Part shown: positions 2,069-30,274 of the stretch, piece after piece
Position numbering within the stretch: position 1 is the stretch's first letter
Layout of the letters: every line of letters starts with the position of its first letter
IMG/VR virus record: IMGVR_UViG_2531839531_000009
Direction: 5' to 3' (one strand)
DNA: 55,409 nucleotides
From: a virus
Taxonomy: Duplodnaviria; Heunggongvirae; Uroviricota; Caudoviricetes
The notes under the pieces: generated by a model
Databases searched by the model: none
What the model was told of the DNA's origin: nothing
What the model saw: the letters and a program-made list of their open reading frames with translations, nothing else
Made by a program: the position numbers and the translations under genes

Positions 2069-2282
2069 CACCCGTCCGGACGCAGCCGCCGAAGCAATCA
2101 AAACACTGATTGATATTTCTGTTATCGCGGACAGGGCGCATAAGCACGCTACCAGTGAAACAGAATATGCCGGGGCTTTCGTTCCTCATTCACTGGCTGT
2201 AATGCAACTTAGTGCTGATATGGCACTGAATGAGGCCAGCAAAATTATCATGGCTGATATGGAGGTGGTGAGCCATGAATAA
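2058..2282 (+). CDS. hypothetical protein
   Basis: ORF whose ATG follows a GGGGG run and overlaps the upstream stop; part of a tightly packed + strand operon. Confidence 0.35.
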   Translation: MCNNTRPDAAAEAIKTLIDISVIADRAHKHATSETEYAGAFVPHSLAVMQLSADMALNEASKIIMADMEVVSHE

Positions 2283-16637: not shown

Positions 16638-16736
16638 CGCATCACCTCTGGCAGGCGCCAATGTTAGACTGAAATTGACGCCCGATGTTGATTATTAATA
16701 ATCAGCTATGAAGTTTTAATTTGAATACAATGCAAC

Positions 16737-18279: not shown

Positions 18280-21200
18280 TAAGCCAGATGCAGTGCTTCA
18301 AGACGACGAAGATCAAAGTCGTTTAATTCGTCGGTATAACTTTCGGTAATCGGTGCTGGCCAGTTGTTTGTCTCTAGGGCTTCGTTTATCTGGCGTAGCG
18401 TCCGGCGATATTCCTGTCGACCAAGTTCCAGGAGTTCCTGCGAGGCTTCCACGACTGCCACCCAGTGATAGCCAACATCTTTGTTGACGAAGATCCAGAA
18501 AAATTTGTCCAGGTTTGCCACATCACAATACATTGCGGCGCTGAGGTGATAATCACGCTCAATAATTTCACGGTGCAGGCGATCTTTAAGTCGTTCCTGC
18601 CGCACATAACCGAGGCTGACTGACTTCACGTCAGCGCAAATGCTTTCGTATGGCAGCCGGATTTCGATATCAGGACGGACCCTGATTTCCAGCCCGGTTT
18701 CTTCATCAAACCCGAAATAGCTGATTTCAGATTTGCGATCCGGGTGGTTGAGTAGCCTTGCTGTATCGGTATTGTTTTGCAGTGCCGCGTGAATATTTTT
18801 TGCCTGTTCATACATATCCGCACTGATAAACGTTTTCCCGGCGTTTTCTTCTTGCTGTCGTTTTTGCCAGTCCTCCAGTGTCACCAGTTCCGGGCGAATT
18901 TTCCGTGCGATTTCGGTTAATTGCTCTTTTGTGCCACTGATGTTGTAAGGCAACGATTTAGCACGTTCTTTTTTTGCCAGTTCTGGATCTACAGTTTCAA
19001 TTTGCTCCAGAAGCTGCTCCCGTGTTCCACTGGTTTTCAGCAGAGGAGGGAGGCTTGCGTTGTATTCTTTAATACAGGCTTTCATTGCTGATGCTGTGTG
19101 TTTTTCCCCCTCAGGAATACGCCGAAATTCCTCCGGAAGCGAACCGTAAAGGATGCCTGTTTCTTCGGTCCCAGCGCTTACCGACAGAGGCTGTATAAGA
19201 GTGCTGTTGTAGCTTTCGATCCACTCTTTCATCTGCTCTGGTGTCATCAGTGATGGCAGACTGGCATTGTATTTTTTAATGATGGTGATCAGTTCGTTAG
19301 AAGTAGTAACCACATATTCAGGAACCGGTACCGGAATGGCATATTCATCAGCGAATTTATCCGTTTCCAGAACGTAGCTGTGAATGATCCGCCCACGCAG
19401 CAATGCATCACTTTCCTCGTTCGGAATAGTCCCGGCAATGTGCCGCCCGTGGTAATACATCAGACTGATGCGGGCATCCTTCAGCATTGTGCTGCTTATT
19501 CCGTTGGCGGAGTGATAAACCTCGTTCGGGAGGTTTTCATAGCGGCCAGGCTCGAAATATGACGGCCACATGATTTCAGTTGCTACATTAGCTGACGCTT
19601 CACCAGTTTCATCACTGCAATCGTGATGCGGATGGTTGCCAGCATTCTCCTTGTGTGGATGTTCAGCGCTTTCCATTTCCTCCGGATCATTTTCCTGAAC
19701 TTCAACCTGATTCTCTTCATCGAATGTTTCCTGGTATGTTGCGTCGCCCATCACCGCACCACAATCAGGGCAGTTGCCGCCGTCGGTCTGACCGCAGGCG
19801 GCGCAGGCTTTTTCCGGCTCCTGTTGCGTTATTGGCTCGGATTGTTTCGTTTCTGGCTCGTTTTGTTGCGCATTTCGGCTGTTTTGTTCCGCTTTCTGGT
19901 CGTTCTGTTCCGTTTCTTGCTGGTTCTGATTCACTGAATCGCGGGTTTCAATCCCCTTCACCCATTTCGGATCGTTCGGGTCGCTAATTCCGTCAACAAA
20001 TTCACCACGTGATGCTGCAAGTAATTTATCGGCATCGACAGGATTTTTTGATGGAATGTTTTTCCGGGCTTCATGGAGTTCTGCCCGCAGTTCCTGATAT
20101 TTCGCATCAACAGAATTTACCTGTGACTGAGCATCCAGCGGCTGCGTGTCCTGATGATGTTCAGTTGCATTCGGTTCCACTGTTTCAGCCGTTGCCTGTT
20201 CATCTGCCATTGCGCCAGATGGTTGTGGCTTTTCTTCATCGTCCTGTTTTCCTTCTTCTGTCACACGCTGCGGCATCGGGGCAGAGGAGCGACCGCAGGC
20301 AATATCCACGATTTCCGGATCAGGGTTGGCATGATCAGTTTCAGTCAGTACTTTGTTCAGATATTCAGTGACGTGCGCGGGGATGACCTCGATCCCAATT
20401 GGTGCTTCTTTCACGGACGCAACCACGGTGGCGCGGGAATAATCCAGCCCGCCAGGCATGGTGATGAATTTGTCGCGGAAAACAGAAAAGGGCGGTTTAT
20501 TTTCAGCGATAATTTCCTCAATGCGTTTAGCGTGTGCCGGATGAAGGTTATAGATGTCCACGTCCATTGAACGGGCCAGTACGCCAGTGGCTACATCGCG
20601 TGCCAGTGACGTCAGATCGTGGACGAAACCTTCGCCGCGATCGGTGAGGTTCCCGCCGCCAGCATTAGCACCGGAAGCCGTGCGAGTGATGCGTGAAACA
20701 CGATTCCCTTTCCTCCATTCTTTTGTCAGAAGACCACGATCAATGTGTTCGGTATCCAGCCAGGCTGAAATGAAATTCTTAAATTCATAGGGCTGATGTT
20801 TTTTCGTGATAGAGAAAACTGCCTTAATTGCATCAGTCAGGCGGAGCAGGGCGGCATTATCCAGAGTTGTCGGTTCTGCCATGCCGCGTATGGCCAACAG
20901 CAGATTCTGGACATAGCTGTTTTCCTGGCCCATCTCAAGAGCAGTAATGTGTTCGCGTTGTTCACGGGTGGCATGATGCAGGTATTTCCGATCCCCGGCC
21001 GCATATGTAAAAATGTGCAGAAGACGCTGTGTGAACCGCAAAGTGGCTACAGAAACTTCGCAATCCTGGCAATCCCCGTGGGCGTCTGCCTGCGCGTTTT
21101 CTTCCTGGCCTCCCGCCAGTTCTTTGGTTTCCTGGGTATTCTCCTGATGGTGAACGTCGTCTGGTGCTGCACCCGGTTTTAGTTCCCAGGTGATGGAGTC

Positions 21201-21446
21201 CTTGCCGAGTTGATAGCGTTCACACCACGTAAAATCGATCTCACCTTCAGGGGGAAGGTCATTAACGACAGGAAAATTAGTTGCAACAGTTTTAAAATAG
21301 TTGCTCAGTTTTTTACCTGACTTAACGATCAGGTAGTCCAGAGTGGCACTGGTCGATTCAAAATCGTCGCTTGCCCACAGGACGACGTCAGGTTCACCGG
21401 ATGATTTTTTCGCTTTCCGTAAAAGGAAGAGTGGTTTTGTGCTCAT
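18279..21446 (-). CDS. recE: exodeoxyribonuclease VIII (RecE family), 1055 aa
   Basis: N-terminal ~450 aa match K-12 RecE as recalled ([26 protein letters not shown]..., [25 protein letters not shown]); acidic Q/E/N-rich region; C-terminal region diverges and holds internal repeats. Confidence 0.8.
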
Positions 21447-21545
21447 TGTTTTTTAACCTCAACTCAGATTAAAATTACTGCGAGTGATGAATAAATGTCC
21501 CAGGTTCTTCACTCAGGCCTGCACACTGTGCAGGCTTTCTTTTTT

Positions 21546-21821
21546 TCAGATTTCACCGTTTAATTTCATTGCGATCAGAGTTGCCAGAAATCCAGCTTTT
21601 TTTTCTGCGGGCAGATTCTTTCCGATGTGAACCAGGCACATTTTTGTGACACCTTCATCAAGTGTTTTAACGTTGCCTGATGGACCGTCGATATCAACCA
21701 CAGTGAAAGGGGTTTCTTTATTTTCTGTTTTAATCACGTAGCCAATGCGCTTTCCTTCCAGATTCACCTCGTGAACAATGTCATCGGTAGTTACAACAGT
21801 GGCTTCATAATTGGTAATCAT
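21546..21821 (-). CDS. racC: RacC-like protein
   Basis: 91 aa from the internal ATG with AGGAG SD; position upstream of recE as in Rac. Confidence 0.5.
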   Translation of the reverse strand: MITNYEATVVTTDDIVHEVNLEGKRIGYVIKTENKETPFTVVDIDGPSGNVKTLDEGVTKMCLVHIGKNLPAEKKAGFLATLIAMKLNGEI

Positions 21822-21895
21822 GTTTTTCTCCTTAATTAAGGTTGAGCGAATCTCTACCATTTCTGGCATAAATTCAGTTTCGAATAGTCAATTAA

Positions 21896-22065
21896 TTAAA
21901 GTTCGTGTGCCATCTGGTCTTTTTCGGCACAGATTTCACTACAATATTTTTTCATTTCCGTCGTTGGTATAACTCCACGCATGAAATGAAGTGGTCTTGT
22001 AATGATTTTGCTTTCTTCAATTTCTTTATTGCAAAGGTGATAAGCACATTTTATTTTCTTAGTCA
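21896..22065 (-). CDS. ydaE: YdaE-like zinc-ribbon protein (56 aa)
   Basis: Minus-strand ORF below the ORF-track size cutoff: [56 protein letters not shown] with two Cys pairs; its start abuts the kilR stop. Confidence 0.5.
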
Positions 22066-22287
22066 TTACCATGACTCCGCCTTTACAGGTAAACCATCAC
22101 GACCGAGGAAGACTTTAATCATGCAGTCAGAAATGCATGTTTTTGTAGTCAGGCTACGAATATAAAGTTTTCGCTTTTTAATATTGTTTGCCGAGGCGAT
22201 ATATGTCCGACCTTCATGAAGAACATAATCGCCAGGGGTCACACACTGACGTGGTATTTCATCAGTTCCGAAGTGATGAGCAATCAT
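22066..22287 (-). CDS. kilR: KilR, prophage FtsZ inhibitor
   Basis: [73 protein letters not shown] matches KilR as recalled. Confidence 0.7.
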
Positions 22288-22695
22288 AATTATCTCCATT
22301 TTTACAAATGAATTTTGTCGATGCGGTGCCTGGTGCCTCCAGGTGACGTTAACCAGTTAACAATTAACGCCGGATAATCCACCCATAACACTGATGCTTT
22401 TAACTGCGCCGCGTGCGCTTAGCCGCATTCACCGCATCACAAAATTCACTTTAAAAAGGGGCGGCAGGGCAGCTACGGAGTAGAACTGATGCCGCCAAAA
22501 ACTAGACACAGCAATGTCGTTATTTACAACCGGAGGCGCACTCCCACCATTTAAATTTAACAGACAAGACCGACTCTTTATGGATACCGGAAATGCGCCT
22601 TCGTATTGTGCCCGGTTTTATTTCACCACCTCCGGGCTTTGGTGGCCTCGGCTATACCCCTACAGCAAGAATATTGAATTAATCCAATAAATGGT

Positions 22696-22848
22696 TTAGC
22701 TGGTATTTTTGGCAAGCCAGCGACGTGCGCCAGCTTCGGTTTTAAACGATTTGCTTTTGGTATACGTCATGGCGGTGAATGTGCCGTCCTGATTGGGAAA
22801 CACGCCACATACCAGAGATTCGTTGTTGCCAAGATCGATAGTATCCAT
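22696..22848 (-). CDS. ydaF: YdaF-like small protein
   Basis: 50-aa ORF from the internal ATG (MDTIDLGNNESLVCGVFPNQDGTFTAMTYTKSKSFKTEAGARRWLAKNTS). Confidence 0.4.
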   Translation of the reverse strand: MDTIDLGNNESLVCGVFPNQDGTFTAMTYTKSKSFKTEAGARRWLAKNTS

Positions 22849-23153
22849 GTTGACCTCATTTCCCCTTAACGCCGGGTGGCGGAACGTTTTATCTACTGCG
22901 CTTTGTATCAATCAACAACTGCCGTCATGTTCGTATGCCTCAGGCTGGCTACTTAGCCCTGTTCAGTGGCTGGATAACTCGAGGTATTGTCCTGCCGTTC
23001 TCTGGTGGGGCGTTGTTTGGATATGCTTATTAAACACAATGTGTTTTCTTATGTCAACACGAAATGTGTTTTATGGTGGGTATCATATGATGATGGTACA
23101 AAAAAGCCCGCTGATAGCGGGCTGATTGGCATATTACTGTGATAGCAAGATCA

Positions 23154-23573
23154 TTACTCCGGTGGGGGATTATCTTTAAGCCTGCCTCTCAAATATTTTT
23201 CTACATACTCATCGATTTCTTTTAGCCGGACTTCAAATAGCTCAATCATTCGTTGTTGTTCTGAGCCCGGTAGCTGGTTAAACAACTCAAGAAGTTTTCG
23301 TTGGGATTCATTTAACCACAATTCAGAAGATTCCTGTTCTCCAAAGAGGAGCTCAGGAGGAGATATGCCAAGTGCCTTTCCCAATACGACAGCGTCATGC
23401 ACTCCAACATTTCTGCTGCCCGCCTCATAGTTACCTATACGCGATTGCGTCCATCCGCAGATTTCAGCAAGTTTTCCTTGAGATAAACCAAGCTTCTGCC
23501 TGCGCTCTTTAAGACGCATTGCAATTTTGTCATTGAGCCTACTAGCGGCAATTTTTTCGTTTTCTTTTTCCAT
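23154..23573 (-). CDS. racR: XRE/cI-type HTH repressor, RacR-like
   Basis: 139 aa with HTH (LGLSQGKLAEICGWTQSRIGNYEAGSR); divergent from the ydaS-like gene. Confidence 0.7.
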   Translation of the reverse strand: MEKENEKIAASRLNDKIAMRLKERRQKLGLSQGKLAEICGWTQSRIGNYEAGSRNVGVHDAVVLGKALGISPPELLFGEQESSELWLNESQRKLLELFNQLPGSEQQRMIELFEVRLKEIDEYVEKYLRGRLKDNPPPE

Positions 23574-23669
23574 TGCATCCTTGTATCACGAATCGTGATT
23601 TACATAAAACACAAAACAGCTTGACCATATAACACAAGATGTGTTTAAAATTGTCATCGGAGGTTTTCA
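23574..23669. promoter_or_regulatory. divergent promoter/operator region between racR and ydaS
   Basis: Perfect 15-bp palindrome ATCACGAATCGTGAT (23585..23599) and inverted repeat AACACAagaTGTGTT (23631..23645). Confidence 0.5.
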
Positions 23670-23912
23670 ATGAACAAAATTTCAACATATCGAAAACAGC
23701 TTGGGCTGTCTCAAAGACAACTTGCTGTTCAGTTAGGGTGGATACAAAGCCGACTGGCAAATTACGAAGCAAATTTTCGTACCCCTGGACTAGAGGAGTG
23801 CAGAAAAATTGTTTCTACCCTTAATCGGCTTGGCGCTCATTGTGGACTTGACGATGTATTCCCCCCAGACGGTAAGCATAGCGAAAACAGCATAGGAGCG
23901 GTTGATTCATGA
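23670..23912 (+). CDS. ydaS: Cro/YdaS-like HTH protein
   Basis: 80 aa with HTH (LGLSQRQLAVQLGWIQSRLANYEAN), transcribed divergently from racR. Confidence 0.65.
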   Translation: MNKISTYRKQLGLSQRQLAVQLGWIQSRLANYEANFRTPGLEECRKIVSTLNRLGAHCGLDDVFPPDGKHSENSIGAVDS

Positions 23913-24331
23913 AAATCAGGCATGAGCACATCGAATCAGTGTTGTTAGCCCTGGCAGCCGAAAAAGGGCAGGCGTGGGTCGCTAACGCAATTACTGAAGA
24001 ATATCTGCGCCAGGGGGGCGGCGAATTGCCCCTTGTACCAGGCAAGGACTGGAACAATCAGCAGAATATCTATCACCGTTGGTTGAAAGGTGAAACGAAA
24101 GCGCAAAGGGAAAAAATTCAGAAACTGATTCCTGCGGTTCTGGCAATTCTTCCGCGCGAGCTGCGTCACCGACTCTGCATCTTCGATACCCTGGAACGCC
24201 GTGCATTACTGGCGGCGCAGGAAGCGTTGAGTACGGTAATTGATGCGCATGATGATGCAGTTCAGGCCGTTTACCGGAAAGCACATTTCAGCGGTGGTGG
24301 TTCGTCCGGCGATTCTGTTGTTGTTCATTAA
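23909..24331 (+). CDS. ydaT: YdaT-like protein
   Basis: 140-aa ORF coupled to ydaS (overlapping stop/start); position as ydaT in Rac. Confidence 0.6.
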   Translation: MKIRHEHIESVLLALAAEKGQAWVANAITEEYLRQGGGELPLVPGKDWNNQQNIYHRWLKGETKAQREKIQKLIPAVLAILPRELRHRLCIFDTLERRALLAAQEALSTVIDAHDDAVQAVYRKAHFSGGGSSGDSVVVH

Positions 24332-24337
24332 GGTGAT

Positions 24338-24640
24338 GTGGTGATGGAAAAATATGAACTGAAAAAATACCGACTTAAAACACTGGAAGGCGAAACATTG
24401 CTTCAGCGTATAGCCCGAAATGTTGCCTGGTATGCCATACGACTCTCTCTGCATCGCCATCTTGTTAACGGGTATCCCTCGTCAACGCTGTTGTTCATCA
24501 ATATCAAAGATAAAGAAAAAGCCGCAGAACACATTCGGTGGATGGAACTGGCGCAGGGACAAGCTCTTGATATTGAGTATGGCGATGAGATCGACTACAG
24601 CAAAGCTCAACCGCTGCGCCACGTAATTTTTAGGGGGTGA
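24338..24640 (+). CDS. hypothetical protein
   Basis: 100-aa ORF; convergent with and abutting the minus-strand ORF 24641..24892. Confidence 0.4.
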   Translation: MVMEKYELKKYRLKTLEGETLLQRIARNVAWYAIRLSLHRHLVNGYPSSTLLFINIKDKEKAAEHIRWMELAQGQALDIEYGDEIDYSKAQPLRHVIFRG

Positions 24641-24892
24641 TTATGACATCTTTTCTTTTAGCTTTTGTAGGACAACGATCGGTTCATCAATTTGGGTTGC
24701 ATCCATTATCAACTCCAGTTTGTGATAAGCCCCGTAATTTAGCTCCTGTGTGTGGAATTCCTGGGCAAGTATTTTTACTCCTCCGCGATTGAGCATTCCT
24801 GAGGTGCTAAAAATTTTTGACTCGGTTCCAGTAATACTGTCCACCCAAAAATTTTGGGGGAATGGAGCAGACTTATCAAATGTAAAAGACAT
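24641..24892 (-). CDS. hypothetical protein (opposite orientation to surrounding operon)
   Basis: 83-aa ORF with AGGAGG SD 6 nt upstream of its ATG; AT-rich. Confidence 0.45.
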   Translation of the reverse strand: MSFTFDKSAPFPQNFWVDSITGTESKIFSTSGMLNRGGVKILAQEFHTQELNYGAYHKLELIMDATQIDEPIVVLQKLKEKMS

Positions 24893-24971
24893 GTCGAACC
24901 TCCTTTGGTTCTGTTGATTGGGGAATCACAGATTATATCCGGAGGAAGGTTCGACACCAGATGAGGCAATT

Positions 24972-26090
24972 ATGGTTAAGGCTAAAAATATGCCAAATCC
25001 CATGCCAAAAACTAAGGCAAACAATGAGCCTTATCGCAAGGTAAAAATAACGATATGGGATGATCCCAAATTTAGGGCGTTATCTCCTCTGCCTCCAAGT
25101 GGACAGAGTTTGTTTATTTATCTGCTGACCAGTCCATTTACCGGGATTATTCCTGGGTTGTTTAAAGCCGGGCGGGCAGCAATGGCTGAAGAGTTGGGGT
25201 GGGATATCGAAGCCTTTAACTTAGCCTTAGGAGAAGTCATGAATCTTGGCATGGTGAAAGCAGATATCAAAGCCAGAGTTTTTTGGCTCCCGAATGCTGC
25301 GAAACACAATCCGCCAAACTCGATAAATGTCATTAAATCCTGGGCAAAGGCATTCGCTTTAATTCCTGATTGCCCTCTCAAATGGGAGGCCAGAGAATCG
25401 CTGAGAGCCGCGTCCTACGGGGTTTCTGAGGCTTTGGGGATGGCATTCGATAAGGCAATCCCTTTGCCTGAGGATAAGCCTAAGGATAAGGCTAACGCTT
25501 TGTCATGCGGTATCCAGATAACAGATAACAGATATATAAACCCCACACATAACGCGCGCGAGAGTGCTCCGGCCAGTGAGGCAAATGGCGTGCCGTTGCA
25601 GACAGCGGAACCTGATTACCTGGAAGGCCTGAGCGAACCCATCGGGAAATTTCCGATGACCGATGGCTGGCATCCGTCGCCGGATTTTCGACGACGGGCG
25701 GCTCTGTGGGGAGTGGCTCTGCCGGAGCCGGAATTTACACCTGCTGAACTTGCCGCCTTCCGGGACTACTGGGCAGCGGAGGGGAAAGTTTTCACGCAGG
25801 TTCAGTGGGAGCAGAAATTCGCCCGTCACGTACATCACGTCAGGGCGCAGGTTAAACCAGTCAGCAAGGGGGTGAGCCATGCAGCAGCACCAGGCGGCAC
25901 CGCATCACGGGCAGTTCAGGAAATTCGGGCAGCACGTGAGCAGTGGGAACGTGAAAACGGATTTATCAGCGACGGAAACGGCGTGGAAGCTGTGGGAACT
26001 CATGGGGGAGGTTTATTCGAACCGCTGGACCCAGAAGAACGGGGCCGCACCTTCGAAGCCCTGGATTGCACAGATTGGTGCGATGACTGA
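24972..26090 (+). CDS. replication initiation protein (O-like/YdaU-like, DnaT-like C-terminal region)
   Basis: Start at internal ATG 24972; C-terminal segment TDGWHPSPDFRRRAALWGVALPEPEFTPAELAAFRDYWAAEG resembles DnaT-type domains; the 3' 212 nt overlap the next gene in another frame. Confidence 0.55.
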   Translation: MVKAKNMPNPMPKTKANNEPYRKVKITIWDDPKFRALSPLPPSGQSLFIYLLTSPFTGIIPGLFKAGRAAMAEELGWDIEAFNLALGEVMNLGMVKADIKARVFWLPNAAKHNPPNSINVIKSWAKAFALIPDCPLKWEARESLRAASYGVSEALGMAFDKAIPLPEDKPKDKANALSCGIQITDNRYINPTHNARESAPASEANGVPLQTAEPDYLEGLSEPIGKFPMTDGWHPSPDFRRRAALWGVALPEPEFTPAELAAFRDYWAAEGKVFTQVQWEQKFARHVHHVRAQVKPVSKGVSHAAAPGGTASRAVQEIRAAREQWERENGFISDGNGVEAVGTHGGGLFEPLDPEERGRTFEALDCTDWCDD

Positions 26091-28333: not shown

Positions 28334-28638
28334 AGGCTATAAACCGACTAACAACTAAATACTGAAGATTTAAATCAGAAACGATTTTTATTAAATCCTT
28401 AACCGGAGGGATTCTGCACCCTCAGAACATCAGGAGGCCGACTGAAAGGGCGGAACAGATAATGCTTACGTTGAAACATTTTATCGACATACCAACATGG
28501 TTAGCCGTCATTGCTTTTGTTAAAATACACATCCACTTTTCTGTGCAATGTTTAACCACTGGTCATATCAAATGGCATTCATGCGAACCATGATATAGAA
28601 TCATGGCTTGAGAGAGTCGATGAAAGCGCAACTATGGT

Positions 28639-29211
28639 ATGAGAGACATTGATGTAAGAAAGGCTGTGCATGCCAAGATTCTGAGAGATCATCATAAAGA
28701 TCCTGACACCCTAATCATTGATGAGTTTACGATGAATCTAGGGGCTAGCAGAGCTGATATAGCAGTGATCAATGGGCTTATACATGGTTATGAGTTGAAG
28801 AGCAAGAGTGATAACTTGCTCAGATTACCAGCGCAGGTGCAACATTACTCATCAGTGATGGATAAAGTAACGTTGGTTGTCTCTGATTGCCATCTTTATG
28901 ATGCTTTAAGCATAGTTCCATCATGGTGGGGGATAAAGCAAGTTACGCAAGGTGCACGGCAAGGTATCCATTTAAAAACAATTCGAACTAGCAAGTTGAA
29001 TCCACAAGTGGACAAACTTTCCTTAACAATGCTTCTTTGGAAAGATGAATTGCTTTCCCTATTAAGTGATGTAGGGGAGCTACAGAATTTGAAAAATAAA
29101 CCTAAACGCGTCTTATGGTCAAAACTCGCCAATAGTATGGATGTTGGCGAGCTTCGTGAAGCTGTTCGAGTTAAACTTAAAGCCCGTAAAGAGTGGCGAG
29201 TTGCTCAATAA
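28639..29211 (+). CDS. PD-(D/E)xK nuclease-like protein (resembles proteins I recall annotated as sce7726 family)
   Basis: 190 aa; LIIDEF...RADIAVINGLIHGYELKSKSDN fits a PD-(D/E)xK D...D...E-x-K pattern; AT-rich coding sequence; 3' end overlaps the convergent partner by 35 bp. Confidence 0.6.
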   Translation: MRDIDVRKAVHAKILRDHHKDPDTLIIDEFTMNLGASRADIAVINGLIHGYELKSKSDNLLRLPAQVQHYSSVMDKVTLVVSDCHLYDALSIVPSWWGIKQVTQGARQGIHLKTIRTSKLNPQVDKLSLTMLLWKDELLSLLSDVGELQNLKNKPKRVLWSKLANSMDVGELREAVRVKLKARKEWRVAQ

Positions 29212-30274
29212 CCTTAGTTATGTGATGGTTTTGCCCAATCCTACGCCATACCTCTGGGCTACCAAATTTATAGTTACCAGAGGGATTGGCTTTGTAGGCT
29301 TGATACTCGTTTGCATAATATTCTATGTCTCTATCTCCCGCACAGAATGTAGGCCCTGAATATTCTCGATGAGCAAGAATATCCTCACTATGTTTACCAT
29401 ATTGTTCATAACCAAAGCGATTAGCTACTCTTCCTCGAAATACCCAAAAGTCATTATCTCCAGAGTATCTGACGCTGGCAGATACGCTAGGGAATCGCGT
29501 CGAAAGCCTATTAAAGTCGGGGTGCTGTACTCCATAATCACTATAAATCACATTTCTGGCAAGTTCTTTTCTATTCATTAAACTCTGCCATAAAATCCAC
29601 TCGATTCGAGGTTGAGAATATAGACCAACAGAAATATCACTGAGATCTGTAGGAAATGAACCCCCAGAAATAATCACTTTCCTGTATTCATTGAGGTGCG
29701 CCAGATTGTTTATCAATCCCATTGCCAAAGTATATAGTTCGCCGGAATTAAGTTTATCCTCGGTTAACTCATCTCTTAAGTCAATAATTATATCAAAATT
29801 TGATAAAGGAATTCCCAGATGATTAATGTAATGCGTTATTAATTGTGGGTTAACCAGATCTAACGTAGTTAATCTCAAGCATATTTCATTCTGCATTAAT
29901 TCATCAATCGCTCTTTTATAGTTAGATGGGCGAGTTGGTGAACTGACAGGAATAACTCTTATTCCCATATCTCTAACTTGATTAACCGCATTCATTATAG
30001 GGTAATGATCTTCAGGAGAAATAAAATGCTCTTCAATTAATAATCCATCAATATAAACACCTTGCATATCTGAGCAAGATTTTGAGACTTTCTTTCCGAA
30101 CTCTATAAGAGTCTCGTTATAACTCTTTAAGGCAATACCTGAATCAGGGTCAATTGGCACTGGTTCAATTTCGAGTAATGGCAAAATTTTTGATTTCTTT
30201 TCAATGGATAGCTGCGATAAAGCTGATAACTCAGAACGTTTCGCTTTCAGAATAGGAATATATGAAATTGTCAT
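29177..30274 (-). CDS. hypothetical 365-aa protein (resembles proteins I recall annotated as sce7725/beta family)
   Basis: Long AT-rich ORF convergent with the nuclease-like gene; no motif identifiable by eye. Confidence 0.6.
   Translation of the reverse strand: MTISYIPILKAKRSELSALSQLSIEKKSKILPLLEIEPVPIDPDSGIALKSYNETLIEFGKKVSKSCSDMQGVYIDGLLIEEHFISPEDHYPIMNAVNQVRDMGIRVIPVSSPTRPSNYKRAIDELMQNEICLRLTTLDLVNPQLITHYINHLGIPLSNFDIIIDLRDELTEDKLNSGELYTLAMGLINNLAHLNEYRKVIISGGSFPTDLSDISVGLYSQPRIEWILWQSLMNRKELARNVIYSDYGVQHPDFNRLSTRFPSVSASVRYSGDNDFWVFRGRVANRFGYEQYGKHSEDILAHREYSGPTFCAGDRDIEYYANEYQAYKANPSGNYKFGSPEVWRRIGQNHHITKVIEQLATLYGL

Follow-up and report, generated by a model that had tools for sequence, protein, structure and literature searches.

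The CI-Cro-CII switches of lambda and 434 combine a tripartite OR between divergent promoters with an OL at PL, and their operators are common to repressor and Cro. The outer half-sites of these operators are contacted and the centre is not, and the site of the CII-type activator overlaps the 5' end of its own coding sequence. In lambda, the operator centres lie near -19, -42 and -65 from the repressor start.

For PaaR2-YdaS-YdaT of CP-933P in O157:H7, a CI/Cro/CII-analogue switch is supported by experiments (PMC8630535, PMC9986795). It comprises a divergent region of about 97 bp, OR and OL operators and a leaderless repressor mRNA, and its YdaT binds a described box, TTGATT-N6-AATCAA, at the ydaS/ydaT junction (PMC9986795). 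CII-like activation was shown experimentally for the YdaT homologues of both K-12 and CP-933P (PMC11879457, PMC8630535, PMC9986795); CP-933P YdaT is about 30% identical to YdaT of K-12 Rac, a figure that relates to the K-12 protein and not to the one described below (PMC11879457, PMC8630535). In K-12, the YdaT box ATGATTCATGAAAATCAA was footprinted and activates leftward transcription, from a promoter that was placed about 190 bp away and not adjacent to the box (PMC11879457). In Qin, DicA is a dual regulator: it represses dicC and dicB, and it activates dicA itself (PMC3441716).

Here we describe the corresponding locus in a window of 55,409 nucleotides (the whole stretch of viral DNA analysed, IMG/VR record IMGVR_UViG_2531839531_000009). 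Very probably, this locus is the repressor/Cro/CII-type lysis-lysogeny (immunity) switch of a Rac-family lambdoid prophage, with a specificity unlike that of K-12 Rac. We read it as a switch of the ordinary type in an E. coli Rac-family prophage, a toxin module being the less likely reading.

Genes of the probable switch and their relatives

Three intact open reading frames were found:

23154..23573, minus strand: repressor gene, 139 aa, CI analogue, with N-terminal HTH_3 and a DicA-type helical C-terminal domain
23670..23912, plus strand: Cro-like gene, 80 aa, HTH_3 (open reading frame and Pfam)
23909..24331, plus strand: ydaT, 140 aa, CII analogue (PF06254, PHROG 163)

The ORF calls reproduce the sizes of 80 and 140 aa given in the first-pass annotation to the genes that it called YdaS-like and YdaT-like. 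From the repressor ATG (23573, minus strand) to the Cro-like ATG (23670), the divergent gap measures 96 bp (23574-23669). According to the annotation of a near-identical prophage in strain 214-4, the element is integrated at ttcA, with intR, xisR, ralR, recT, recE and kilR to the left, and the repressor diverges from a cro/cII-type pair, in the position that RacR has in K-12.

The window prophage and K-12 Rac (PMC5700373, PMC5700377, PMC11879457) are of one prophage family, with the same ttcA site, a leftward repressor gene and a rightward Cro-type gene and ydaT. Their left arms (recE, kilR, DUF1391 gene) are 75-89% identical, and in both the YdaT box lies on the ydaT start codon. In contrast, RacR and YdaS are unrelated in sequence to the window repressor and Cro, the operators and the intergenic region are likewise unrelated, and the downstream replication genes differ too. 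K-12 Rac is defective, whereas the window prophage looks complete, with terminase, structural, lysis, replication, int and xis genes present. Similarity to K-12 Rac DNA ends at 23012 and restarts at 23903, and the segment 23013-23902 is a swapped immunity cassette relative to K-12 Rac. Among 5426 complete E. coli genomes, 153 (about 3%) have the cassette with at least 95% identity, and 135 of these with at least 99%; the carriers include O103, O111, O145, O55:H7 and O157:H7 strains.

The first-pass annotation had proposed an alignment to K-12 racR-ydaS-ydaT, which succeeds for YdaT and fails for the two other proteins. The name racR was not confirmed, as the best BLASTP segment between the repressor and RacR (b1356) covers 36 aa with an E-value of 2.0. 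BLASTP against K-12 DicA gave a full-length match with both domains aligned (29% identity, E = 2e-15); the two proteins have a C-terminal LLELFNxLPxSEQ motif in common, and both are without S24. On the NCBIfam DicA model (NF007257) the repressor reached 57.2 bits, under the 101-bit cut-off. From these comparisons, the repressor is a distant full-length DicA homologue outside the curated DicA subfamily. Three isolated phages, Chris1, pAEv1818 and pPE4, have repressors that are 58-66% identical to it; in Chris1 and pAEv1818, the member of this family is the sole repressor-like gene at the corresponding position. An AlphaFold model from the single sequence had a mean pLDDT of 64, with low confidence for the C-terminal helices.

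The Pfam search of the repressor returned HTH_3 (4.7e-13) and no other match; Peptidase_S24, the self-cleavage domain that scores 88.6 bits in mEp213 cI, was not among the matches. Not every lambdoid repressor has this domain; DicA and RacR are without it. A search for LexA-box cores, as would mark an SOS-controlled antirepressor, gave a single match in the window (2119-2134), which lies in the host flank and not in the prophage.

The YdaS-like label did not survive comparison either, since BLASTP of the 80-aa protein with K-12 YdaS gave no alignment. K-12 YdaS scores 107.7 bits with PF15943 (COG4197), whereas the window protein matches HTH_3, HTH_19 and HTH_31 only. It shares 54-62% identity with annotated Cro proteins from viable lambdoid phages such as VT1-Sakai, mEpX1 and mEp213, is 100% identical to Cro of pPE4, and is matched by PDB 28tn_A (E = 8e-15). 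Its recognition helix (GWIQSRLANYE) resembles that of the repressor (GWTQSRIGNYE), and its gene has a Shine-Dalgarno sequence, GGAGG, at 23659-63. DicC was considered as a relative of this Cro and rejected, no similarity being found.

For YdaT, the first-pass label was correct. The protein is 95% identical to K-12 YdaT, matches PF06254 at 4.3e-11 (43.5 bits, gathering cut-off 21) and PHROG 163, 'CII-like transcriptional activator', at 2.5e-36, and also matches PDB 8bt1 and 3c4r. In the alignment with K-12 YdaT, the DNA-contact residues H56 and R57 are conserved, as is W58. The Pfam family carries the name 'YdaT_toxin'.

Within the module, YdaT alone is thus common to the window and K-12 Rac; with its own repressor, Cro and operators, the window prophage would have a different, uncharacterised immunity specificity. 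Compared with CP-933P, the window repressor is of another family, PaaR2 has a toxin-antitoxin pair downstream, and the CP-933P YdaS is a COG4197 protein. In Qin, the leftward operon under DicA control also contains a DUF1391 gene, DicF and a division inhibitor, but the DicA operator Oc (TTGTTAGTCATAACTAACAA) is unrelated, and DicC is of P22_Cro type and unrelated to the window Cro. The immunity types of mEp213, mEpX1 and VT1-Sakai have the same operator family ([A][ATC]CAC-N5-GTG..) and promoter/operator layout, with 3 + 3 sites in mEp213, whose cI DNA-binding domain and Cro are 58% and 55% identical to those of the window. However, mEp213 has a cI with an S24 self-cleavage domain, a lambda-type CII and an N antiterminator, and the window element has a DicA-type C-terminal domain and YdaT instead.

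An Rfam scan of 21000-25500 gave DicF as its sole match and nothing within the switch, and a PADLOC scan of the three proteins gave generic HTH 'control protein' matches only.

Operators, candidate promoters and the predicted YdaT box

The sites are as follows (operators and YdaT box without strand):

23585..23599: OR3-like operator ATCACGAATCGTGAT, a perfect palindrome that overlaps the candidate repressor promoter
23608..23622: putative OR2-like operator AACAC-AAAAC-AGCTT, with one good and one degenerate half-site
23631..23645: OR1-like operator AACACAAGATGTGTT, within the spacer and -10 element of PR
23033..23047: OL1 operator, AAAAC-ACATT-GTGTT on the minus strand, with one mismatch, in the spacer and -10 element of PL
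23056..23070: OL2 operator AACACGAAATGTGTT, adjoining the PL -35 element
23621..23649, plus strand: candidate PR, TTGACC (23621-26), 17-nt spacer, TTTAAA (23644-49)
23029..23057, minus strand: candidate PL, TTGACA (23057-52), 17-nt spacer, TTTAAT (23034-29)
23580..23588, minus strand: candidate PRM with extended -10, TGaTACAAG
23105..23123, minus strand: intrinsic terminator 3' of the repressor gene, 8-bp stem with 6 G-C pairs, then a T-run
23902..23919: predicted YdaT box TTGATT-CATGAA-AATCAG, across the start codon of ydaT and the stop codon of cro
23875..23880, minus strand: tentative candidate -10, TATGCT, of a YdaT-dependent, PRE-like leftward promoter, 21 bp downstream of the box

Both inverted repeats that had been noted earlier, a perfect 15-bp palindrome and a second repeat, can be read in the 96-bp gap, as ATCACGA-A-TCGTGAT (23585-23599, perfect 7-1-7) and AACAC-AAGAT-GTGTT (23631-23645, arms AACACA/TGTGTT). 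A single perfect 15-bp palindrome is not rare, with 8 in the window against 3.4 +/- 1.9 in shuffles. The pattern AWCACNNNNNGTGWT had 3 matches in 55 kb against 0.14 expected (at least 3 in 0 of 100 shuffles), all of them in a stretch of less than 600 bp that surrounds the repressor gene. Two further sites, one at 23033-23047 with a single mismatch and one at 23608-23622 that is half-degenerate, have a spacing of exactly 23 bp to their neighbours. This brings the AWCAC-N5-GTGWT sites in 23-bp register to five: OR consists of the three in the divergent gap, and OL of the two past the repressor terminator. The two sites left of the repressor gene had been overlooked in the first-pass annotation. 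The perfect palindrome AAACACAATGTGTTT (23032-46) was considered as a 7-1-7 operator and rejected because its CAC-N3-GTG form is not conserved in relatives, unlike the 5-5-5 register at 23033-47, which is kept.

Conservation was assessed on 31 distinct intergenic sequences from relatives with repressors at least 84% identical. Half-site columns never varied (0 of 20), whereas 34 of the 76 other columns did (Fisher p = 4.9e-5), and within the sites the variation is located in the 5-nt central spacers. The operators keep their distances to the repressor ATG in relatives with as little as 60% identity. OR3 has invariant half-sites and keeps its offset of -26 in all of these, and OR1, at a fixed offset of -72, varies in its spacer bases alone. 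OR2 is spaced exactly 23 bp from OR1 and likewise from OR3; its left half and spacer do not vary, and AGCT does. Relatives carry a half-site there, and OR2 adjoins the -35 element of PR in the same relative placement as OL2 has to its own. OL1 keeps its GTGTT and AAAAC halves around a variable spacer in relatives, and OL2, again with a variable spacer, is conserved in all of them. On this pattern of conservation, the palindromes are evidently real, conserved operators.

The OR and OL sets each overlap one candidate TTGACx-17-TTTAAx promoter, called by eye and by conservation; this arrangement, with an operator in the spacer, recurs in Chris1 and mEp213. With its repressor and cro genes transcribed divergently and three sites, spaced in a 23-bp register, over candidate PR and PRM, the region has the layout of a lambdoid switch, and the second cluster (OL1 and OL2 over TTGACA-17-TTTAAT) is conserved in relatives. 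Transcription from PR would start near 23656. An alternative PR -10 is TAAAAT at 23646-51, with a spacer of 19 nt. The PL candidate is directed into the DUF1391 gene, DicF, kilR, recE and recT, and its layout recurs in relatives and in mEp213. The terminator separates the repressor gene from OL/PL, and relatives have one in the same place.

Since the PRM candidate stops 6 nt short of the repressor ATG, the repressor mRNA is predicted to be leaderless or nearly so. The candidate corresponds base for base to TGaTATAAA of mEp213 and to GTG[GA]TAAAA of other relatives; several relatives have no Shine-Dalgarno sequence. Leaderless translation is not required in the window, since the repressor has a Shine-Dalgarno-like AAGGA. 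A promoter consensus scan reported none of PR, PL and PRM, whose -10 elements are imperfect; the scan accepts only -10 elements with A in the second position, and for this reason it missed PR and PL.

The YdaT box differs from the published TTGATT-N6-AATCAA by one mismatch. At the 3' end of K-12 ydaS, which is unrelated in sequence, TATGAT lies 20 bp from the YdaT box, comparable to the tentative TATGCT of the window. A box that lies upstream of xisR, in K-12 as well, may be a further YdaT target.

Proposed working of the switch

The genes and their homologies were observed here, as were the sites, how well they are conserved and their register; from these we infer the binding partners, where the promoters lie, translation without a leader and which way regulation runs, as follows. 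The DicA-type 139-aa repressor, presumably as a dimer, would bind the 15-bp AWCAC-N5-GTGWT sites OR1-OR3 and OL1-OL2. Occupation of OR1 and OR2 would turn off PR (cro, ydaT, replication genes), and occupation of OL1 and OL2 would turn off PL (DicF, kilR, recE, recT, xis, int). With the centre of OR2 at about -42 from the predicted repressor start and OR3 over the predicted -10, positive and then negative autoregulation would be possible, as in lambda. Cro, with its near-identical recognition helix, would compete for the sites of the repressor. YdaT, bound to the box on its own start codon, would drive leftward transcription and thus yield more repressor, as lambda CII does at PRE.

The arrangement of OR and OL, the CII-type activator box and the operator centres (about -19, -42 and -65 from the PRM candidate) appear to match lambda and 434. 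In contrast to these phages, YdaT has no detectable sequence relationship to its lambda counterpart, the window repressor is without a RecA-dependent cleavage domain, and OL has two sites only. The lambda paradigm is unchallenged by the present results.

Toxin reading, other alternatives and immunity type

An 'immunity or toxin switch' had been suggested for the locus, and the phage-switch half of this suggestion stands, on the OR and OL operators and the divergent repressor/Cro-like/YdaT layout. The other half, a repressor-controlled toxin locus or atypical toxin-antitoxin module whose main job is the silencing of toxic YdaS-like and YdaT-like products, is improbable. It draws on K-12, where racR is essential, derepression or over-expression makes ydaS and ydaT toxic (PMC5700377, PMC5700373) and YdaT leads to filamentation and death via RcsA (PMC11879457). 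The near-identity of the two YdaT proteins, with H56 and R57 kept, and the Pfam name point the same way, and the K-12 YdaT toxicity data are probably transferable to the window protein. The YdaS data are not, because the Cro-like protein is not a YdaS. However, the K-12 toxicity has been reinterpreted as that of Cro/CII-type regulators that are harmful only if over-expressed (PMC5917428, PMC8630535, PMC9986795, PMC11879457), and CP-933P YdaT is non-toxic, with YdaS and YdaT acting as Cro and CII analogues (PMC8630535, PMC5917428). The layout also differs from that of a type II toxin-antitoxin module, in that the regulator is divergently transcribed and both rightward genes encode predicted DNA-binding proteins; the literature on homologues argues against such a module as well (PMC5917428, PMC8630535). 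Full OR and OL phage-switch architecture in a seemingly complete prophage adds to this. Finally, the classic killers kilR and DicF lie in the PL operon, so that lethality on derepression can be explained without a dedicated toxin, and it likely comes from these two rather than from Cro and YdaT.

That the locus is a decayed remnant of an immunity region, its palindromes being fossils without a present regulatory role, is more improbable still. Many Rac-type elements are defective, K-12 Rac included, and in strain 214-4 one nucleotide is missing immediately downstream of the PR -10; yet all three reading frames are intact, half-sites are invariant while adjacent bases drift, and the cassette recurs nearly unchanged in the 135 genomes, with a full prophage gene set around it. 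We give hardly any credence to the idea that the inverted repeats arose by chance or form RNA hairpins, and are not protein-binding operators. Perfect 15-bp palindromes are not uncommon in the window (8 versus 3.4 expected), and conserved arms around a variable centre would also fit a stem-loop, but the five sites follow one motif in 23-bp register, in promoter spacers upstream of the predicted starts, a 5-bp A/T-rich stem would be unstable, and the repressor genes of distant relatives are flanked by the same motif.

The main value of reading the locus as a phage immunity switch is a correction: this copy should neither be labelled racR/ydaS nor be treated as a toxin switch. In addition, footprinting and the immunity typing of Rac-like prophages have ready targets in the operator map.

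In Rac-like phages of the pPE4 type, the repressor's DNA-binding domain is only 58% identical to that of the window repressor, and OR1 and OL have CTCAC/TTCAC half-sites, not AACAC. The sole half-site common to the two types is of the ATCAC type (repressor-proximal OR3). It is a speculative and rather doubtful proposal that one Cro allele serves both of these heteroimmune switches. If Cro acted mainly at OR3, Cro from one immunity type could keep a resident prophage of the other from making repressor, and, if true, this would mean cross-induction between heteroimmune Rac-like prophages.

Repressor, Cro-like protein and operators

The locus is a new, uncharacterised immunity type. The kind of system to which it adds is thoroughly known, and we judge it to be of low interest.

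Genes and operators of the switch
23154-23573, leftward: repressor gene, intact, 139 aa
23670-23912, rightward: Cro-like gene, intact, 80 aa, separated from the repressor gene by a 96-bp gap
23909-24331, rightward: ydaT, intact, 140 aa, overlapping the Cro-like gene by 4 bases
23585-23599: operator OR3, ATCACGA-A-TCGTGAT, a perfect 7-1-7 palindrome in the 96-bp gap
23631-23645: operator OR1, AACACAAGATGTGTT, a second inverted repeat in the same gap
23608-23622: operator OR2, AACAC-AAAAC-AGCTT, a half-degenerate fifth site halfway between OR1 and OR3
23105-23123: terminator of the repressor gene, from a terminator scan
23056-23070: operator OL2, third match to AWCAC-N5-GTGWT, past this terminator
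23033-23047: operator OL1, a fourth site, found when one mismatch was allowed

By sequence comparison, the repressor and the Cro-like protein are not RacR and YdaS, with which they had been equated. BLASTP of the repressor against K-12 RacR gave E = 2.0, and the Cro-like protein neither aligned with K-12 YdaS nor matched PF15943, for which K-12 YdaS scores 107.7 bits. DNA similarity to K-12 Rac covers the left arm up to 23012, is lost, and returns at 23903, one base into the YdaT box; 23013-23902 is therefore an exchanged immunity cassette. Qin DicA is a distant homologue of the repressor over its full length (29% identity, E = 2e-15); the two share the C-terminal LLELFNxLPxSEQ motif, and the repressor scores below the DicA cut-off of NCBIfam. 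Between the repressor's DNA-binding domain and that of mEp213 cI, identity is 58%; mEp213 cI, unlike the window repressor, carries an S24 self-cleavage domain. Annotated Cro proteins of VT1-Sakai, mEpX1, mEp213 and others share 54-62% identity with the Cro-like protein, whose recognition helix (GWIQSRLANYE) closely resembles that of the repressor (GWTQSRIGNYE).

The perfect 15-bp palindrome and the second inverted repeat noticed earlier in the divergent gap are both present on reading the sequence. One such palindrome alone is unremarkable, since the window has 8 versus 3.4 +/- 1.9 in shuffles. The two repeats are members of one site family, however, and the palindrome observation is confirmed and widened to five operators. 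In the 55 kb searched, AWCAC-N5-GTGWT has three matches versus 0.14 expected, all flanking the leftward gene, and site centres are exactly 23 bp apart inside each cluster. A perfect palindrome at 23032-46 was rejected as an operator; it is accidental, the register kept in relatives being 23033-47.

For comparison, we used 80 IMG/VR loci encoding relatives of the repressor. Where the adjoining repressors were at least 84% identical (31 distinct intergenic sequences), none of the 20 half-site columns varied, as against 34 of the 76 remaining columns (Fisher p = 4.9e-5). Substitutions cluster in the 5-nt site centres, which fits a dimeric helix-turn-helix protein touching the outer bases only. 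Relatives down to 60% repressor identity have sites at fixed offsets near -26 and -72 from the repressor ATG, with a half-site at the position between them; in these relatives the operator sequences drift while the offsets stay fixed. The left cluster is also conserved among relatives, and in mEp213 this operator family recurs as 3 + 3 sites. In a sister immunity group (IMG/VR loci L042-L061; repressor 84% identical, operators the same), the gene that follows the Cro variant of 84 aa is a different one in place of ydaT, which shows that the CII-type module is swapped independently of repressor and Cro.

Candidate promoters

Promoters predicted from the sequence
23621-26 and 23644-49, rightward: PR candidate, TTGACC, 17 nt, TTTAAA
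23057-52 and 23034-29, minus strand: PL candidate (leftward operon), TTGACA, 17 nt, TTTAAT
23588-23580, minus strand: best candidate for the repressor promoter, extended -10 TGaTACAAG

OR1 lies within the spacer of the PR candidate and OR2 adjoins its -35 element; OL1 and OL2 hold matching places in the PL candidate. Citrobacter phage Chris1 and mEp213, a viable lambdoid phage, also have TTGACx-17-TTTAAx with embedded operators. With GGAGG 6 nt ahead of its ATG, the 80-aa Cro start at 23670 is the credible one, because an ATG inside OR1 is out of frame with Cro in the window. In strain 214-4 (NZ_CP025840.1 4526661-4526690; window 23639-23669), the A-run after the PR -10 is one base shorter, so that PGAP calls a 90-aa Cro from the ATG inside OR1.

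The extended -10 aligns base for base with TGaTATAAA of mEp213 and with GTG[GA]TAAAA of other relatives, several of which have no Shine-Dalgarno sequence before the repressor. From this candidate, the repressor transcript is predicted to start at or beside the A of the ATG, and OR3, OR2 and OR1 would then lie near -19, -42 and -65, in agreement with lambda PRM. CP-933P paaR2 has been reported to be leaderless too (PMC8630535).

YdaT and the toxin reading

23902-23919: YdaT box, TTGATT-CATGAA-AATCAG, overlapping the ydaT ATG, one mismatch to the published consensus

The 140-aa YdaT-like protein proved to be a true YdaT (PF06254; PHROG 163, 'CII-like transcriptional activator'; 95% identity to K-12 YdaT), with H56, R57 and W58 of the K-12 protein kept. 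The equivalent K-12 box has been footprinted and is needed for a 29-fold YdaT-dependent rise in leftward transcription and racR expression (PMC11879457). CP-933P YdaT binds TTGATT-N6-AATCAA and activates a PRE-like promoter (PMC8630535, PMC9986795). A -10-like hexamer is found 20-21 bp leftward of the box, TATGCT here and TATGAT in the unrelated 3' end of K-12 ydaS; we weakly infer that, if it serves as a -10, the box would be centred near -42. The K-12 authors place the YdaT effect at a promoter ~190 bp from the box (PMC11879457), and their construct, which retained the natural intervening DNA, fits both models alike.

TTGATTATTAATAATCAG (16688-16705) is a second YdaT-box-like site, and its half-sites match those of the box at the ydaT start codon. 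It precedes the xisR ATG by 51 bp; on the minus strand, a -10-like TAACAT occurs 21 bp downstream of it. K-12 Rac has the identical site (NC_000913.3 1413503-1413520). The site could act in a PI-like manner or as a roadblock; the PI-like role is disfavoured by the report, in the 2025 NAR paper on YdaT, that YdaT by itself fails to trigger Rac excision. That paper nowhere mentions xisR.

The first-pass annotation of a racR/ydaS/ydaT-like toxin switch is only partly supported: the switch and YdaT stand, the assignment to racR and ydaS is mistaken, and a toxin switch is an unlikely reading. The K-12 papers naming YdaS and YdaT toxins were answered by Jobling (PMC5917428), and subsequent studies show the two proteins regulating in the manner of Cro and CII. 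No toxicity was seen for CP-933P YdaT (PMC8630535); K-12 YdaT is toxic on over-expression, via rcsA (PMC11879457), and the window YdaT seems close enough to share this property. YdaS toxicity data say nothing on the window Cro, because Cro is unrelated to YdaS. DicF sRNA (22459-22510, minus strand; Rfam RF00039, 54.6 bits) and kilR (22066-22287, minus strand), well-known division inhibitors, belong to the leftward operon that follows the predicted PL. Their control by the same repressor would be sufficient reason for the repressor to be indispensable.

Mosaicism and prophage context

The most unusual thing found is a mosaic relationship with the Rac-like genome pPE4 ('Actinobacillus phage vB_Apl-pPE4'), which is compatible with ordinary lambdoid mosaicism. 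Its cro and ydaT DNA is 95% identical to the window's and its Cro protein 100% identical; the C-terminal half of the repressor is 74% identical (DNA), whereas neither OR nor the part encoding the repressor's DNA-binding domain can be aligned. The pPE4 operators have TTCAC/CTCAC half-sites, and the ATCAC-type OR3 half-site is the sole one common to both immunity types. The record (PP818812.1) was deposited with an Actinobacillus host, a label that looks doubtful because, across recE, kil, cro, ydaT and the primosomal gene, the DNA matches this E. coli Rac-like prophage at 93-98% identity.

At 99.7% identity, the window matches a prophage that occupies ttcA in E. coli 214-4, with intR, xisR, ralR, recT, recE and kilR leftward of the switch and replication, lysis, terminase and structural genes rightward. 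Of 5426 complete E. coli genomes, 153 carry the repressor together with the intergenic region and 162 carry the cro gene; ~1460 have a match to some part, whichever, of a 22950-24700 query. Among the phage matches listed, a few cover the ydaT part only.

Two small ORFs between ydaT and the replication genes, 24338-24640 (plus strand, 100 aa) and 24641-24892 (minus strand, 83 aa), had no match in Pfam, PHROG, NCBIfam or PADLOC and are missing from the corresponding position in K-12 Rac. A convergent pair at ~28636-30271 (L002 11687-13322), annotated 'sce7726 family' and 'beta family protein', matches the PADLOC models 'cll' (2.4e-28) and PD-Lambda-2_C (1.5e-40) and is probably anti-phage defence cargo of the prophage.
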